Position numbers and translations under genes: made by a program | The notes under the pieces: generated by a model | The model's input: the letters and a program-made list of their open reading frames with translations, nothing else | Database searches by the model: none | Told to the model about the DNA's origin: nothing | Virus record (IMG/VR): IMGVR_UViG_3300020036_009553 | Location: 32,001-96,000 of that record | Source of the DNA: a virus | Lineage: Duplodnaviria > Caudoviricetes | Length of the DNA stretch: 64,000 bases | Reading direction: 5' to 3' (one strand) | In this document: in pieces, positions 7,090 through 50,169 of the stretch | How positions within the stretch are numbered: the stretch's first letter is position 1 | Layout of the letters: each line of letters begins with the position of its first letter

Positions 7090-9348
7090 ATGATCACGAA
7101 TCAATTCCAAGCTCCTGTTGAACGTTCCGGTGTTGCGGCTGAAAGTGTATTTCACATCAATGCCAGTGCAAAGGCATTTGAGATCCTTTCTTCCACATTG
7201 TACTCGGACAAAATTCAAGCGATCGTTCGGGAGCTAGCGTGCAATGCCTACGATGCTCACGTCGCTGCAGGAAATCAAGATACGCCGATTGAGATCCATT
7301 TGCCATCACCATTGGATGCCACATTTTACGTTAAGGATTTCGGCACGGGGTTATCCCGCGAACAAGTTGTTGGGCATACTGATGCCACGGGCCGTTTTAT
7401 TCCTGGGATCTATCAGACGTTTTTTGATAGCGACAAGACTGACAGTAATAATTTTATTGGTGCTCTCGGGCTTGGGTCAAAGTCACCATTTTCGTACACC
7501 AGTCAATTTACTGTGGAATCGCGGTTCAATGGAACATGCTACGTCTTCCTGGCGTTTAAGAATGAGGAAGGATTGCCATCAATTGTTGAAATCTCTCATG
7601 CTCCAACAATTGACCCTAATGGTCTGACAGTATCGTTGTCGGTTCGTTCGGAGGACATTGGTAAGTTTTTTAACGCTGCAAAGTTGGCGTTGATGTATTT
7701 CAATCCAGCTCCAACGGTTCTCGGGCGGTGGGATTTTGGATCTGCTCACAGGTTGGTTCACACCGTGTCAGGCACAAATTGGAAGATTCGTGAGGCGGAT
7801 TATTATGCCAATATGATTGGCCCTCGTGTTGTGCAGGGGTTTGTATCATATCCAGTTCTGACCCACATGTTATCTCAACATGTTGCTTTATCTGTAGGCG
7901 CCGCCGGATTGTTGAGCACAGATGTTGATTTGTACGTACCAATTGGAGAGATTGATGTTGCTCCCTCTCGTGAAGCGTTGTCTTATAACAAGAAAACATG
8001 CGTTAGTTTGATTACAGCTCTGGAACAGGCCGCCGATGAGATGCGGGCAGGGTTTCAGAGTTCATTCGACAAGTGCGCCACCAGGTGGGAGATGCTTTGT
8101 CTTCTCGAGAAGCTGACGAAGAGTTCTTCGCAGAAGTTCAATGCAGTATTTGCTTCAATGCATAAAAGCATCCCATTCACCTGGAACGGGGATGAAATTG
8201 CGGATGTAGTATCCATGGACCTGAGTGAGTGCTATCTCATGGGCATCCAGCGTGTATCACGATCAGTTAATCGTCGTGGTATTATGGCCCGCAAAGTGAA
8301 CATGTCGGACGTATGGGGGAAGGGTCGGGGAAGTTCAGATACTGCTGAGCTGCCATGTACTAATCCAAGCAAGATTAAGTTTTTGGTGGAGCGGACTGGG
8401 AAGGTGCTCGGGCCTGTGTTCTTTCAAGCATACACAGATACCTTTGGAGCTACGGAAGATCATCTGTTGTATGTGATTCGGTCCATTCCTGGTTGTGGGT
8501 ATTCTGCGGCTGAAACAAAGATGATTCTCGAGCAATTTGGGAATCCTCCCGTTGAGTATGCTGATGAGGTGATGGCAAAGGTACAAGTCGTTAAAAAACA
8601 ATACGTTAAGAAAGATAAAGAAGTTAAAATGTTTTGGACGGGGTTCCGTACCAAGCGCGTTCGTGGGAGGATGGTTGAAAATAATTCATACTCCCGTCTC
8701 ACATGGGACAATGCTACTTTTGATCCTTCGGAAGGTGGGTATTACGTAGTTGTTGATCGTTTTACGCCAATGAACGGTGATCAGCCAGTAGCCAACCTCA
8801 AACAATTCATTGGGGCTGCCCAGACGTTACATTATATCCCAGAAGGGGTTACGATATGGGGGCTAACGAAGAATGATGCTCGTGAAATCGAAGACGATGA
8901 GCAATGGATTAATGTGGTTACCGACACAGCTCTCCAATTCGAAACTGATAATGAACAAGGAGAGTTGACGAACAAGGTCAATGTAACAACCACACTGAAT
9001 CAAGTTCATCGTACCATGGGATGGGCATATTCGCGCATTGTCGGTGTGTGGACGCCTTCTATATCCCAAACATGTTGCGATGGAGAATTTAAGACATATA
9101 TTGAAAAAATCTATCAACTCATTCAAACTGCTGATGAGCCATGTGAAATAAAAGCAATCCGGTGCTTGGCTACTCAGTTTGGTGATTGTCTTCAGCAGAC
9201 GCCTGAGGCGATAGCCGCTATCACTTCTCAATGGGAAGCCATCCTCAAGAAATACCCAATGTTACAATTTATTGATTGTTCATACACTCATTCATCCGAG
9301 TTAGTTGCAATTATACTCGAATATATTGGGTTGGTGGAACGGAAGTAG
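7090..9348 (+). CDS. rIIA: rIIA-like protein (N-terminal GHKL/Hsp90-like ATPase)
   Basis: KAFEILSSTLYSDKIQAIVRELACNAYDAH, DFGTGLS, IGALGLGSKSPFSYT, PSREALSY motifs. Confidence 0.92.
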   Translation: MITNQFQAPVERSGVAAESVFHINASAKAFEILSSTLYSDKIQAIVRELACNAYDAHVAAGNQDTPIEIHLPSPLDATFYVKDFGTGLSREQVVGHTDATGRFIPGIYQTFFDSDKTDSNNFIGALGLGSKSPFSYTSQFTVESRFNGTCYVFLAFKNEEGLPSIVEISHAPTIDPNGLTVSLSVRSEDIGKFFNAAKLALMYFNPAPTVLGRWDFGSAHRLVHTVSGTNWKIREADYYANMIGPRVVQGFVSYPVLTHMLSQHVALSVGAAGLLSTDVDLYVPIGEIDVAPSREALSYNKKTCVSLITALEQAADEMRAGFQSSFDKCATRWEMLCLLEKLTKSSSQKFNAVFASMHKSIPFTWNGDEIADVVSMDLSECYLMGIQRVSRSVNRRGIMARKVNMSDVWGKGRGSSDTAELPCTNPSKIKFLVERTGKVLGPVFFQAYTDTFGATEDHLLYVIRSIPGCGYSAAETKMILEQFGNPPVEYADEVMAKVQVVKKQYVKKDKEVKMFWTGFRTKRVRGRMVENNSYSRLTWDNATFDPSEGGYYVVVDRFTPMNGDQPVANLKQFIGAAQTLHYIPEGVTIWGLTKNDAREIEDDEQWINVVTDTALQFETDNEQGELTNKVNVTTTLNQVHRTMGWAYSRIVGVWTPSISQTCCDGEFKTYIEKIYQLIQTADEPCEIKAIRCLATQFGDCLQQTPEAIAAITSQWEAILKKYPMLQFIDCSYTHSSELVAIILEYIGLVERK

Positions 9349-9411: not shown

Positions 9412-10368
9412 ATGATTTACATCAAAACACAAACAGGATTTGCAGGGCTGGCGGATGGTAAGCCATTTACGGTAGCGGACACACATCCGTGCTTTGGTGA
9501 AATCGAGCAAGCGATTCGTAATAACAATGAGCAATTAGTTCATCAGTTGATTAATCGATCAACCATGCTGGCTACTAACCCACACGTTGTGCACCAGCGA
9601 GTAGAAGTTGATCCAGTGGCAGGGGTGATCTATGTGGATGGTCTCCCGATTGAGAACACCCTCGTCAGCAGAGTAATTTCAATGGCGTTGGAAGGGTATC
9701 AAATTGAATCAATGGTTGCATTCATTGACAATTTGTACCAGAATCCATCCAAGAAAACAATCGATCGTATCTATGCTTGGTTGGAAGCTGGTGAAATGCC
9801 GATTACCGACGATGGGCATTTCATTGCTTATAAGCGAGTTAACAACGACCTGACCTCATTCTACGATAACACGACGAAACATGTCGTCGGTGAAGTGACA
9901 GCAATGGAACGATATCGTTGCGACGACCGAACAGAAGAGACGTGCTCCACTGGGCTGCACTTTTGCTCTTATGGATATCTCTCAAAATATTATTCGGGCA
10001 TGGGCCGAATTTTGGTGCTCAAAATCAATCCAGCGGACGTTGTTGCTATTCCCGACGATTATGGAACATCAAAAGGTCGGGCTTGTAAGTATTTGGTCGT
10101 TGGGGAATTGACCATTGAACAAACATCTGAAGTTGAAACTGTTAATGTTCTGTCAATGCCTGTAATGATTATTGATGAGCAAGACACTATTCCCGAGGAA
10201 CCAACTACCAGTCCTACATATGAACAAGGATATGTGAGGGGATATGCTGTCGCTCGCCAGCAGAAGTTTATCCCTGACATGCCGGATGATGCCAACAGTG
10301 ATTATATTGAAGGGCATTCAGCAGGGTATAGTGACGGCATCTACCACAAAAAACGGATGTATCGGTAG
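9412..10368 (+). CDS. rIIB: rIIB-like protein
   Basis: ITDDGHFIAYKRV, CSTGLHFCS, KINPADVVAIPDDY..KGRACKY; adjacent to rIIA. Confidence 0.92.
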   Translation: MIYIKTQTGFAGLADGKPFTVADTHPCFGEIEQAIRNNNEQLVHQLINRSTMLATNPHVVHQRVEVDPVAGVIYVDGLPIENTLVSRVISMALEGYQIESMVAFIDNLYQNPSKKTIDRIYAWLEAGEMPITDDGHFIAYKRVNNDLTSFYDNTTKHVVGEVTAMERYRCDDRTEETCSTGLHFCSYGYLSKYYSGMGRILVLKINPADVVAIPDDYGTSKGRACKYLVVGELTIEQTSEVETVNVLSMPVMIIDEQDTIPEEPTTSPTYEQGYVRGYAVARQQKFIPDMPDDANSDYIEGHSAGYSDGIYHKKRMYR

Positions 10369-10869: not shown

Positions 10870-11168
10870 AATTATCATCATTTTCGTAACCACGAAACTA
10901 CCAAGAATTGTTTGGTAGTCACAAAAAGTCAACAGGGCAGAATGAATTTTCTTGTTTGACTAACCTTTCATTATACTCCGCCCAACGTACAAAAGTCAAC
11001 AGGGCTGTCGTGACTTTTAGGAACGATAGGCGCTCTCGCCGTCCACCCCCCTCTGTTCGATAAGTCCATTATACTCGGAATACAGCCAAAGGACAACGAA
11101 AATTGTAAGTTGACAATCATTGTGAGACGTCGTATAATATGATTTTCCCTCAACAACCGAGATATATC

Positions 11169-11381
11169 ATGTGCACCACAGAATTAGCCCATGCCATCGC
11201 AATTGCCCGTCGTTGCCGTCATCTGTTTGATGCGGATATTCAGTTCCGTTCTGCCGTTCAAACGTCGTCAGAGTTCTACAACGCCTGCATTGCGTATTGT
11301 GGAGCTGAGAACGTGCCTGACATGGGCACCGCCGAGTATGAAGAAATCATCATTGAACTCGAGCAGTGTTTCCTCCAGTAA
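11169..11381 (+). CDS. Hypothetical protein
   Basis: Promoter TTGACA-17-TATAAT at ~11110. Confidence 0.6.
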   Translation: MCTTELAHAIAIARRCRHLFDADIQFRSAVQTSSEFYNACIAYCGAENVPDMGTAEYEEIIIELEQCFLQ

Positions 11382-21580: not shown

Positions 21581-21652
<72 letters not shown>

Positions 21653-21992
21653 CAGATCAATTGGTTACGAAGCGAGTACTTTTGCTGCTTCCGCGTTCAG
21701 TGCTACCATACCCTTGAGGAGATGTTCCTCAATAAACAGCACGTGTTGAGCATCGAGGTCGTTCCATGTATTAACTGTTTCGCATTCAACGACGCCCTTT
21801 GAATCGGTTAGTTCAAATGTAACCGTAACAGTCTTTTTGTTTGCCATTTCATTCCTTTCAAATTTCGGGCGCGAGAAACAATTCCTCGGCATGTTTATTT
21901 ATGTAAAATCGGCAATAGTGCTCCTTTTAATTAAAATTGTTGACTTCACTTGAACATTCCTGTATAATTTCTTCATTAACTGGAGACAATAA

Positions 21993-23629: not shown

Positions 23630-23708
23630 CGGAATGTCGCCTAGTCAGGTTATGGCACCTGCTTTGGGAGCAGGTATAACGAGAGTTCGAATCCCTCCAT
23701 TCCGACCA
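23630..23708 (+). tRNA. tRNA-Pro(TGG)
   Basis: CGGAATG/CATTCCG-A-CCA; CCTGC-TT-TGG-GA-GCAGG. Confidence 0.9.
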
Positions 23709-23914: not shown

Positions 23915-24076
23915 ATGAAAAACGTAATGCGTCTGGTTATTTTGGTGATTTGTTTGGGAAGTAATGTTGCTCCTTCCTTTGCTGGGAATTGTGACTACTC
24001 ATGGCAAACTGCATCAAATGGATCCTCATGTGGCGGTCGCGCCGCTGATCAACGTCCTGGTGGGAAATTTCAATGA
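23915..24076 (+). CDS. Secreted micro-protein
   Basis: AAGGA RBS, signal peptide ending SFA, C...ASNGSSCGGRAA. Confidence 0.65.
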   Translation: MKNVMRLVILVICLGSNVAPSFAGNCDYSWQTASNGSSCGGRAADQRPGGKFQ

Positions 24077-24195
24077 AATTGACGCTGCTTGTTGTGCTGC
24101 TGTTTTCGCTGGGTCCTGCGTTTGCGTATCAAAAGGACGGGTGTCCTTGTTATGATAAGCCGTATTTTCCCAACTGTATTTGTAGCAAAAAGTAG
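24073..24195 (+). CDS. Secreted Cys-rich micro-protein (40 aa, not in ORF track)
   Basis: MKLTLLVVLLFSLGPAFA|YQKDGCPCYDKPYFPNCICSKK; ATGA overlap with the previous ORF. Confidence 0.6.
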   Translation: MKLTLLVVLLFSLGPAFAYQKDGCPCYDKPYFPNCICSKK

Positions 24196-24390
24196 TTGAC
24201 ATTGAAGAGAAATTGACGTATAATGATCTTCATTGAATGAGAGATAAATTGGTTACGATAGAGCCTGATTCCACCACCGAGTGGATAGGGCCAAGAAGTC
24301 CGCAAGGACAGTATGCTAATCAACAATAAACCAAAATGTTTTTGTAGTAAAAAAGTAGTTGTCTTAACAAAGGAAAAGCAGTATAATGAT

Positions 24391-24550
24391 CTTGTTGTTG
24401 AGGGAATCAGGAAATAGAGTGAATTACGACGGAGAGCAGCCATGTACTTTTGCCAGGCATTCCGATCCACTTGATCCTGATTCAATAGTTAAAATGGTGA
24501 TTAGACATTCTAATTAGCCACCAGGAGGTGAGGCACCGATGGGCAGTTAA
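24391..24550 (+). ncRNA. Structured RNA unit 1, ending in a perfect SD and minigene ATG GGC AGT TAA
   Basis: Promoter TTGTCT-17-TATAAT; stem GAATCAGGA/TCCTGATTC; AGGAGGTGA 24523-24531; ATG 24539. Confidence 0.55.
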
Positions 24551-24694
24551 CTTGAGACACTTTAAAATATAGATAATAGTTAATTAAAGCGATTCACCCC
24601 AAGAGGAATCGGCCTCTTGGGGAACCCACCTGAGATGTCAATAATTAAAAAAGTTTCAGTTGTTGACATTTGATTCAAAATGTAGTAAAATGTA

Positions 24695-24872
24695 CTTGTT
24701 GTTGAGAGAGAAGTAAACGAACACAAATAATAACACCGGTCGGCGCATGGCCATTATACGACAGCCCAATTGCCACCGTTATGTTATGTGTATCGTCAAG
24801 GCTTCGTTAACCTTTAACATAAGTAAAAGTTACTTTAATGAACCGCCAGGAGGTGAGGCAAAAATGATTTAA
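24695..24872 (+). ncRNA. Structured RNA unit 2, ending in a perfect SD and minigene ATG ATT TAA
   Basis: Promoter TTGACA-17-TAAAAT; long imperfect hairpin; AGGAGGTGA 24848-24856; ATG 24864. Confidence 0.55.
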
Positions 24873-24904
24873 GATCCAAATATAATGTAAGTTTATTATA
24901 GAGG

Positions 24905-25238
24905 ATTAATAATTGTTACGCTTACGACTGTAGTGAATGGTGAAAGCAGGTAACTACACGAGTGGCTCTGGGAAACAAGGACAGACAGAATGCTGTCCGA
25001 AGAAGGGATGGAACGATTGAGAAATGGTTCCATGTGTGAAGAGCGTGAGGAGGGGCTACTTCACAAATTCTCTGAAAAATCCTTGATCGTCAGTTGAGGA
25101 TGCTCCGGAAGTACCTGGTGGTAGAAACTTCCGTGTAATTATTTCTTTAACAAAAGAGATAATATTGGTCAACCACATCCGAATTCATGGTTTGAGGGGT
25201 GGTAGTAGCGACAAATCGCTCCCATCCCTCTCTTTTTT
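24905..25238 (+). ncRNA. Putative multi-hairpin non-coding RNA
   Basis: No ORF; stems TGTAGT/ACTACA, GGACAG/CTGTCC, ATGGAAC/GTTCCAT, TGTGAAG/CTTCACA, GGAAGT/ACTTCC; U-tract end. Confidence 0.5.
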
Positions 25239-25303
25239 GTTGACATTATCGCCGATACGTTGTATAATGATCTTCATCAGCTGACAACACGAGGAGAAAG
25301 AAA

Positions 25304-32361: not shown

Positions 32362-32605
32362 TTTTCTCTCTCTTTCTCAATCAATTAATATTAACTTCTC
32401 TCTTTACAACAAGAACATTATCTCACAAAACAAACAAAAAAACAACTACTTTTTCAAACATACAGTCTCTCATTAAATAACAACACCATACTACAATCCA
32501 ACACACCATTCAACAACTCTAATTCTAAATGAACAGTCCTGTTGATTTTAATAGAGAGATATTGTATAATGGTTTCATCAACTGACAACACACAAGGAGA
32601 TTCAA

Positions 32606-35128: not shown

Positions 35129-35191
35129 CATTATACATCATTGTGAGTCGTGAGTCAACTGTTGACTTCTTTGATTGAATGATGTATAATG
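35129..35191. promoter_or_regulatory. Back-to-back divergent sigma70 promoters
   Basis: CATTATACATCATT...GTCAAC-T-GTTGAC...AATGATGTATAATG. Confidence 0.8.
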
Positions 35192-35320
35192 TAGTCTAAT
35201 GAGTGAGAGATAGATTAAGAGAAAAGTTAAACAGGGCAGTCGAGTTATATACAAATATATAGACGATGGTCGTGTATGTCAGGTACCTGGTACACGTTCA
35301 TATATCAATTTATTTTCCAC

Positions 35321-35391
35321 ATTCCAATTTAACATTTCCATCCACATTCCAACTCAACAATTCCAATTTAACATTTCCATCCACATTCCAA
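35321..35391 (+). repeat. 32 bp direct repeat x2 in a G-free tract
   Basis: ATTCCAATTTAACATTTCCATCCACATTCCAA at 35321 and 35360. Confidence 0.85.
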
Positions 35392-35517
35392 TTTAACAAT
35401 TCTGAAACAATATTTTTAAAAATCTCGTTTTCAAAAATTTTTTTTGAAATTTTTTACCCGTGAAAATGGGTTTCTCTCTGCACCACTTATCCAATAGTTA
35501 TAGGAGCATTATTAAAA

Positions 35518-49725: not shown

Positions 49726-50169
49726 ATGCGCGCTTATTTTTTTACTAATATGTATCTATCCTCAATTCAACAAGGAATTCAACCACTGCACTGCATTGTT
49801 GAAATGATGGCAACCGCTTGGCCTAATCATATACGAGATATTTTATACGATTGGGCTTTTAACCATAAGACTGTTATTTGTTTAAATGGTGGAGCTACAG
49901 GCAACGTATGTGAGATTTATGACCGCGTTAAACTTCTCGGCAAAAGACTAGACCTCCCGTTTGGATCCTTCAACGAGGATGAATACTCACTATCTGGCAT
50001 AAAAACAACTTGTGGAATTATAGTTCCAAGCGTCATTTACGAATTGGCACAAGACCTGCGGTCGAATAGGTGGTTAACTAAGGACGGAGACCGAAGTATA
50101 ATGGAGGCATATAGCTCCGATGAAATCGCATTAGCCAAACTTCTAAACGAATGTTCACTGGCACATTAA
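49726..50169 (+). CDS. Putative peptidyl-tRNA hydrolase 2-like protein
   Basis: NMYLSSIQQGIQ..H, W...HKTVICLNGG, F.ED...L....T..GIIVP pattern recalls the Pth2 fold. Confidence 0.5.
   Translation: MRAYFFTNMYLSSIQQGIQPLHCIVEMMATAWPNHIRDILYDWAFNHKTVICLNGGATGNVCEIYDRVKLLGKRLDLPFGSFNEDEYSLSGIKTTCGIIVPSVIYELAQDLRSNRWLTKDGDRSIMEAYSSDEIALAKLLNECSLAH

Follow-up and report, generated by a model that had tools for sequence, protein, structure and literature searches.

Two early units of an uncultured T4-type phage join a perfect Shine-Dalgarno sequence to a frame of two or three codons

Our results show that two neighbouring units, which we call B and C, each carry a strong early-type promoter and a leader without an ORF, and end in a 9-nt perfect Shine-Dalgarno sequence (SD), an AUG, one or two sense codons and UAA. 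The units are real and unusual for a T4-type phage, but they are an orphan pair. Their sequence features go beyond what chance would produce. The anatomy of the units, the uniqueness of their SD in the genome, the pattern of their conservation and the absence of an ORF can all be read directly from the DNA. Because the units are ORF-free, promoter-driven and close with an exceptionally strong start and a near-immediate stop, some ribosome-engaging role appears to be the most economical reading of them. Our preference, which we hold tentatively and a little short of even confidence, is that B and C give rise to early non-coding RNAs in which the conserved module serves to load a ribosome, and that this ribosome probably acts on the RNA itself.

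Results

Genomic setting

The window that we analysed is a stretch of 64,000 nucleotides, bases 32001–96000 of a 128,415-bp IMG/VR record with a CheckV completeness of 57%. The closest cultured phages are KVP40-like Vibrio phages. Because their amino-acid identity is only about 35%, across half of rIIA, the source is a distant uncultured T4-type phage. It does not follow that it is a jumbo phage. Units B and C sit within a plus-strand stretch of tiny early genes, downstream of two tRNA genes (Table 1). About 50 other early sigma-70-type promoters of this phage (TTGAC, 17 nt, TATAAT) lead through 23–45 nt of leader to an SD and a real ORF. Near-identical strings of promoter, leader and ribosome-binding site (RBS) recur at many of its early genes, and its commonest stop codon is TAA.

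Table 1. Positions of the two units and of the features around them, numbered from the first base of the window
Feature	Position	Strand	Remarks
rIIA	7090-9348		
rIIB	9412-10368		
tRNA-Thr	21581-21653		just upstream of the units
tRNA-Pro	23630-23708		ends 650 nt upstream of the units
Unit B promoter	24359-24387	+	TTGTCT-17-TATAAT, preceded by AAAAAAGTAG
Unit B 5' block	24391-24402	+	CTTGTTGTTGAG; predicted transcript start; 3' arm of the promoter-enclosing stem in the read-through RNA
Unit B long imperfect hairpin	24404-24483	+	z -3.3 against dinucleotide shuffles
Unit B second hairpin	24495-24520	+	3' strand CCACC adjoins the SD
Unit B predicted ribosome-loading module	24511-24550	+	25-nt block, AGGAGGTGA at 24523-24531, 7-nt spacer, ATG GGC AGT TAA at 24539-24550
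Perfect 10-bp G+C-rich hairpin	24597-24622	+	47 nt past the unit B stop; z -3.7; without a T-run
Unit C promoter	24663-24691	+	TTGACA-17-TAAAAT
Unit C 5' block	24695-24706	+	CTTGTTGTTGAG
Unit C long imperfect hairpin	24710-24805	+	z -2.6 against dinucleotide shuffles
Unit C short hairpin	24821-24835	+	AAGUAA/UUACUU
Unit C predicted ribosome-loading module	24836-24872	+	25-nt block, AGGAGGTGA at 24848-24856, 7-nt spacer, ATG ATT TAA at 24864-24872
First terminator-like hairpin with T-run	25194-25238	+	likely common 3' end of the unit A, B and C transcripts
Third promoter/5' block cassette	32394-32445	-	TTGTTT-17-GATAAT (32445-32417), then CTTGTTGTAAAGAGAGAAGT

Anatomy of the units

A preliminary description of this DNA had reported a strong promoter ahead of both units and one long hairpin in each. 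Both features are present, and the hairpins are more stable than those of dinucleotide shuffles (Table 1). The leaders, which contain no ORF, measure about 145 nt in unit B and 165 nt in unit C, against 23–45 nt at the other early promoters. This places the SD 130–150 nt from the predicted 5' end. Both units have an A+U-rich stretch 3' of the stop codon. Within 24190–25300 the only repeats are the promoters and the SD block. Rfam 15 at permissive thresholds contained no family for the units (a single snoRNA match, E = 1.3, is a chance one), and no small ORF of this region on either strand matched PHROGs.

What follows the stop codon differs between the two units. Downstream of unit B there is one hairpin and then the next promoter. 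This hairpin (24597–24622) is unlikely to be an intrinsic terminator, since no T-run follows it. RNAs begun at the promoters of units A, B and C would probably form a nested set that ends at the first terminator-like hairpin with a T-run. Unit C forms one predicted promoter-to-terminator unit with the structured region behind it. This region, from the unit C stop to the terminator-like hairpin (24873–25240, plus strand), is 360 nt long, ORF-poor and strongly structured (z -4.2), and has no match in Rfam. It holds a possible 35-aa ORF (24990–25097) behind AAGGACAG.

Unit A lies directly upstream (24196–24350, plus strand). It has a perfect consensus promoter (12/12) and no SD-led ORF; a 30-aa frame begins about 6 nt past the likely transcript start. 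Its 3' end repeats, with a 1-nt indel, the last 30 nt and the promoter junction of the preceding 40-aa gene. Unit A was rejected as a third paralogue, for lack of any significant alignment, and as an antisense partner of unit B, because the gain from cofolding is no better than with shuffled A.

The Shine-Dalgarno module

The 15-mer CCAGGAGGTGAGGCA occurs twice in the window, at 24521–24535 and 24846–24860, and an ATG follows 3 nt after each copy. Shuffles of the window contain on average 0.05 matches, and two copies turned up in none of 100. Across the 128,415-bp record, both strands included, AGGAGGTGA is limited to these two sites, and no diverged third copy of the 18-mer exists in the 128 kb when up to 5 mismatches are allowed. 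Upstream of the starts of 153 crude ORFs (80 aa or more), matches to the anti-SD reach 6 nt at most, and the predicted SD:anti-SD duplex of the units is worth -16.2 kcal/mol, compared to -8.5 and -6.4 kcal/mol for two typical early leaders. Only half of the SD is predicted to be paired, through weak 4-bp local stems.

The preliminary description was accurate about the start sites: exactly 7 nt separate AGGAGGTGA from the ATG in units B and C, and the two short frames lie where it had placed them. The 3-nt spacer behind the conserved block differs (CCG in B, AAA in C) and the distance to the ATG is unchanged. Because the codons differ and both frames stop after 2–3 codons, neither a peptide nor a particular tRNA appears to be conserved. 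Such a pattern would be expected of a ribosome start site that is maintained for its own sake, with peptide and codons not mattering.

Likeness between the two units

The 25-nt block before the ATG is identical at 22 of 25 positions (24511–24535 and 24836–24860). Both MAFFT and local alignment confine the similarity to the 5' 12-mer, this block and the ATG. It had been proposed that the units are two homologous structured RNAs with a similar hairpin core and a short hairpin each, which our results do not support. Once the end blocks are removed, the middles (108 nt in B, 24403–24510; 129 nt in C, 24707–24835) align no better than shuffles or random genome windows and in fact score below their mean (z -1.2, p ~0.95). 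The short hairpins fall into different alignment columns and have different sizes, 27 nt and 15 nt. Likeness is thus restricted to the ends, and the fold of unit C as a whole is no more stable than that of shuffles (z -0.7 to -1.0). We found no alternative pairing that is conserved between B and C.

The 5' block

When the genome was scanned for duplexes with the 5' end of unit C, a near-copy of this end came to light on the minus strand (Table 1). There, CTTGTTGTAAAGAGAGAAGT is identical to the unit C 5' region at 18 of 20 positions, and the promoter is preceded by AAAAAGTAG, the same as at unit B. Behind it comes a 120-aa ORF (32361–31999) with a leader of about 55 nt and without a PHROGs match. 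The RBS region of this gene bears a weak resemblance to its counterpart in unit C (z 2.1, p 0.045). In RNA that reads through from A to B, promoter B, from its -35 element into the spacer, pairs with the 5' block in the predicted fold. Because the minus-strand copy heads an ordinary ORF, and because the architecture resembles that of PeSL cassettes, the 5' block can be classed by sequence as an element of promoter cassettes that is not special to units B and C. Hence, its conservation is uninformative about the minigene.

A further observation concerns the 5' end of unit B, GTTGTTGAGGGAA. A perfect 13-nt complement to it lies at 11146–11158 (plus strand), at the mRNA start of a 70-aa early gene (11169–11381). 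By a rough estimate about 0.01 such matches are expected per genome. At -24 kcal/mol the duplex is the best genome-wide, and the next windows follow close behind (-23.9 and -23.7). The complementarity may reflect shared cassette ancestry or a real RNA-RNA contact.

Codons and the Pth2-fold protein

The idea that the minigenes trap particular tRNAs finds no support in their codons. GGC AGU in unit B and AUU in unit C have nothing in common, and none of them is rare in the phage: GGC makes up 15% of Gly codons, AGU 18% of Ser codons, and AUU, with 53%, is the commonest Ile codon. Both facts argue against a specific tRNA trap. The intact tRNAs of the phage are those for Thr and Pro only, and neither reads GGC, AGU or AUU. 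In a CreT minigene toxin, changing AUA to AUU or AUC abolished activity (PMC8501985).

The preliminary description also named a Pth2-like gene as a possible counterpart of the minigenes. Its view of the fold holds up. The product of ORF 49726–50169 (plus strand, 147 aa) has a Pth2 fold according to its AlphaFold model, which was built from 64 homologues and reaches a pLDDT of 94.6. The best 12 PDB matches of this model consist entirely of Pth2 from archaea or eukaryotes or of close homologues (MJ0051, 1xty, 3erj, Bit1 and others); their probability is 1.00 and their target-normalised TM 0.60–0.74. The protein Atlas gives a Pth2 lead for this ORF too. At the sequence level identity to Pth2 structures is 11–16%, Pfam (including PF01981) contains no match, and sequence and profile searches of the PDB were negative. 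The supposed link to the minigenes is a different matter. The gene lies 25 kb away from the units, and more than 130 proteins of its family are encoded on large phage contigs, which reach 360 kb. Among the carriers are the related giant phages G001 and G002, whose homologue shares 36% identity and in which units B and C are absent. We see no specific link between this ORF and the minigenes. A cytoplasmic Pth would, we reason, help host and phage translation equally.

Search for relatives

No homologue of units B and C was found in any of the collections that we searched. With blastn, 50,697 phage records contained no homologue at the default limit and short chance matches only at E up to 10. 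DNA-pattern scans of IMG/VR returned only ordinary gene starts or repeated RBSs of unrelated phages. One contig (L099) does contain the block twice, but in a locus of 57% G+C and ahead of real ORFs. Scanning 185,579 prokaryote genomes for the pattern yielded 80 matches, none of which has an ATG at +3. Look-ups of single proteins in IMG/VR (the product of the downstream 208-aa gene, and rIIB) did not find a close relative. The 208-aa gene itself has relatives at 60–69% identity, and the identical protein is encoded on six other contigs. On the contig with the 69% relative (L049) a protein-guided metagenome scan found ordinary small early genes where the units would stand. Neither nhmmer nor a minigene scan detected a unit in the whole records of three distant giant-phage relatives.

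Several other kinds of element were considered and rejected for the units: a tmRNA or tRNA-like RNA, since ARAGORN reports tRNA-Thr and tRNA-Pro only; a group I intron inside a gene, for which Rfam has no match; recoding of the stop codon, since TAA is the commonest stop of the phage; and a real gene on the minus strand, where ORFs of 111 aa and 48 aa have no PHROGs match.

A separate case of a mini-frame was seen in the giant phages. On L066 at about 9750–9800 (G002:C1:149750-149800), and likewise in G001, a perfect hairpin with GAGGTGTGTTAA as its left arm stands between two genes. ATG ATT TAA follows this arm, and a second copy of the arm, behind this frame, starts the real downstream gene. 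This duplicated RBS has the same AUG AUU UAA mini-frame as unit C and is not homologous to the units.

Discussion

How the units could work

We suggest that B and C, in this T4-like phage, are a pair of early promoter cassettes of the sigma-70 type from which no protein is made. Their transcripts would begin with a shared leader start, which is common to the units and at least one ordinary gene cassette. A long hairpin specific to each unit would follow, and then the 25-nt module (9-nt perfect SD, 7 nt, AUG), one or two sense codons and UAA. Because ribosome loading without a product is what appears to be conserved, it is probably the selected property. A 30S subunit or 70S ribosome would be caught very tightly, initiate, and terminate or drop off almost immediately. 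Most likely, the ribosome would act on the RNA that carries it, either by covering and stabilising an untranslated early RNA or by keeping its 3' side unfolded. The carrier would comprise the upstream hairpin and the A+U-rich stretch; in unit C it would also take in the structured RNA of 360 nt behind the stop codon. The real cargo would be the hairpins or this downstream RNA. We favour an effect on the carrying RNA mainly because identical end pieces frame different hairpins, as would be the case for a generic expression or stability frame around a specific cargo.

Several observations are consistent with this reading. The SD stands alone in the genome and is extreme, only the module is conserved, its flanks being at chance level, and both middles fold better than shuffles. 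In B. subtilis, ribosomes that initiate at a strong SD are described as protecting the mRNA (PMC5737220), and CreT RNAs act by being translated and not through their peptide (PMC8501985). Other observations count against it. Unit C as a whole folds no better than shuffles, and the pair stands without a homologue in our searches. The known SD stabilisers lie near the 5' end, not 130–150 nt into the RNA, and they act against RNase J. Cassette homogenisation, instead of selection, could also explain the conserved block before the ATG, because the 5' block belongs to a recombining promoter cassette. We infer transcription, ribosome binding and action on the carrying RNA from the DNA; by sequence alone, an effect on this RNA looks the same as one exerted in another part of the cell.

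Homogenisation is also at the heart of an explanation that needs no function at all. The units could be remnants of ordinary early cassettes that lost their ORFs through recombination between cassettes, in which case the strong RBS and the tiny frame would be non-functional leftovers that homogenisation keeps alike. In T4-type phages, recombination of PeSL cassettes does delete and swap ORFs (PMC2839356). In our phage near-identical promoter, leader and RBS strings are common to many early genes, and the 5' block recurs with its AAAAAGTAGTTGT upstream context before the minus-strand 120-aa ORF, whose RBS region weakly resembles that of unit C. Yet neutral decay should erode the 25-nt block as much as its surroundings, which are at chance level while the block is not. 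No gene in the 128 kb uses the block, and none of the crude ORF starts has an SD beyond 6 nt. Two independent truncations to 2–3 codons are improbable as well (about 0.03 by a rough estimate), and ordinary cassettes have neither leaders of 145–165 nt nor a long hairpin. We consider decay unlikely. A second explanation places the effect elsewhere in the cell: early RNAs would, by their abundance, titrate out 30S subunits, initiator tRNA or release factors, or shed short peptidyl-tRNAs that load Pth, as in lambda bar or CreT. The early promoters of the units are strong, and a strong SD, an AUG, 1–2 codons, a stop and a stable downstream hairpin would match the elements that CreT toxicity requires (PMC8501985). 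Peptidyl-tRNA also builds up more with shorter minigenes, but minigene toxicity requires a Pth-deficient background or a scarce tRNA (PMC2490762). The codons of the units are neither conserved nor rare in the phage, and AUU or AUC are the very substitutions that inactivated CreT. The phage encodes a Pth2-fold protein, but so do phages without the units, and a sponge for ribosomes would, by our reasoning, starve the phage's own weak-SD mRNAs as well. Such interference strikes us as quite unlikely. We are similarly doubtful of a broader version, in which the sole product of the units would be a captured ribosome that is used elsewhere early in infection. It would divert 30S subunits, initiator tRNA, release factors or Pth capacity from host messages, or the units would serve as SD-bearing adaptors whose 5' ends pair with weak-SD early leaders to bring the ribosome along. 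The 13-nt match at the mRNA 5' end of gene 11169–11381 might be an example of an adaptor target.

We regard two further explanations as improbable. The minigene could be a regulatory mini-uORF whose occupancy sets the fate of the RNA downstream, be it read-through, Rho access, RNase E cleavage or the folding of the 360-nt RNA with its possible 35-aa ORF. This would suit unit C, which shares one predicted promoter-to-terminator unit with 24873–25240, and it would suit the A+U-rich stretch behind both stop codons. Start-Stop sites are known to modulate expression of the RNA that carries them (10.1101/520783). Downstream of unit B, however, there is just a hairpin and the next promoter, no alternative pairing is common to B and C, and PHROGs lends no support to the 35-aa ORF. 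Alternatively, the purine block may not be a ribosome site but a seed or a protein-binding motif, for example by pairing with CCUCC-containing targets or by luring away a nuclease with GGAG specificity, such as T4 RegB, which cuts GGAG in early SD regions (PMC3014915). A conserved stretch of 15–25 nt does exceed the 9 nt that pair with 16S rRNA, and because the 5' end of unit B has a perfect 13-nt complement at the 5' end of another early mRNA, RNA-RNA pairing by the units is conceivable. But in both units an ATG is kept at a workable distance and followed by a short frame that ends in TAA, and complements of the block in the genome do not exceed 10 nt. A search for RegB in the 57%-complete record gave no match; a control search was likewise blank, so this result carries little weight.

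Comparison with known systems

Among known systems the units would appear to work most like CreT RNAs and bar minigenes, yet they fail the rare-codon pair of CreT and are without a CreA partner. CreT, the toxin of CreTA modules in Haloarcula, is likewise a small RNA with a strong promoter and a strong SD, whose AUG opens a mini-ORF of a few codons; behind this mini-ORF it has a stable stem-loop (PMC8501985). An SD and start of the CreT kind are present in both units (9-nt perfect SD, AUG, 7-nt spacer). The stem-loop may have counterparts in the 10-bp G+C-rich hairpin 47 nt behind the unit B stop and in the weaker hairpins of the RNA downstream of unit C. CreT, however, requires a pair of adjacent rare codons (AGA or AUA) and ties up a single rare tRNA, whereas GGC AGU and AUU are not rare in the phage, although host usage may differ. 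CreT is also repressed by the CRISPR-like CreA RNA together with Cascade, and 24190–25300 contains no CreA-like repeat. The setting differs too, as the units lie in the early region of a lytic phage.

Lambda bar is itself phage-borne and consists of an SD, an AUG, 1–2 codons and UAA. Unit C has the bar layout of an SD, an AUG, one sense codon and a stop, and its AUG AUU UAA is a single base away from the AUG AUA UAA of bar; unit B has two sense codons. The effect of lambda bar requires a tRNA in short supply and shows in hosts deficient in Pth. To our knowledge, lambda bar sites have no dedicated promoter, long hairpin or 9-nt SD. Engineered minigenes have covered the range from 2 to 8 codons (PMC2490762).

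Start-Stop sites of E. coli resemble the units in that they are initiation sites without a possible product, and they are thought to act by ribosome occupancy (Meydan et al., 10.1101/520783). There, the stop follows directly after the start and the sites lie out of frame inside genes, whereas the units have 1–2 sense codons in between and the frame closes a dedicated non-coding unit. Hence, we would not call the units Start-Stops in the strict sense. By position they also seem unlike the described SD stabilisers (STAB-SD of cryIIIA; hbs mRNA, PMC5737220; PMC3997798). In these the SD is very strong as well, and the bound ribosome protects the RNA instead of making protein. As far as these reports describe them, they lie close to the 5' end and stop RNase J of Gram-positive bacteria. 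The units allow no protein product either, but their SD lies about 130–150 nt from the predicted 5' end and comes with a start and a stop.

Two features of T4-type phages are also worth comparing. PeSL cassettes contain strong sigma-70-like early promoters in hyperplastic regions (PMC2839356, PMC4122927). The units share this architecture: promoter B lies inside a stem formed with the 5' block, and the cassette is reused at 32445–32394 on the minus strand. PeSLs, however, are short regulatory cassettes between ORFs and lack a hairpin of 110–130 nt or a minigene. RNAC and RNAD of T4 are small non-coding RNAs that, like the units, are encoded near tRNA genes (PMC3014915). The units differ from them in having their own promoters, and blastn against the phage records, among which T4 is presumably included, gave no similarity. 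We know of no SD minigene that has been reported for RNAC or RNAD. A review of T4 gives the roles of these two RNAs as unknown and reports no trans-acting regulatory RNA of T4 with a characterised function (PMC3014915).

An early RNA that is built on the strongest RBS of a genome and a frame of 2–3 codons would be a simple and testable case of a phage that exploits ribosome occupancy itself. Such occupancy would either stabilise cargo RNAs or disturb host translation. Lambda bar, CreT, Start-Stops and SD stabilisers show that each step is feasible, but in none of these precedents does a lytic phage join a minigene with a perfect SD to both a long hairpin and a dedicated early promoter.

Other observations in the window

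Just upstream of unit A, at 23915–24195 (plus strand), lie two overlapping tiny genes of 53 aa and 40 aa. Judged by eye, both have putative signal-peptide-like hydrophobic N-termini and Cys-rich tails, and the 53-aa gene matches PHROG 14503, 'membrane associated protein'. Further along the same strand, at 35162–35517, a consensus-type promoter is followed by about 330 nt free of ORFs and then by gene 35518. This stretch holds about three tandem copies of the 27-nt unit CCACATTCCAATTTAACATTTCCAT.
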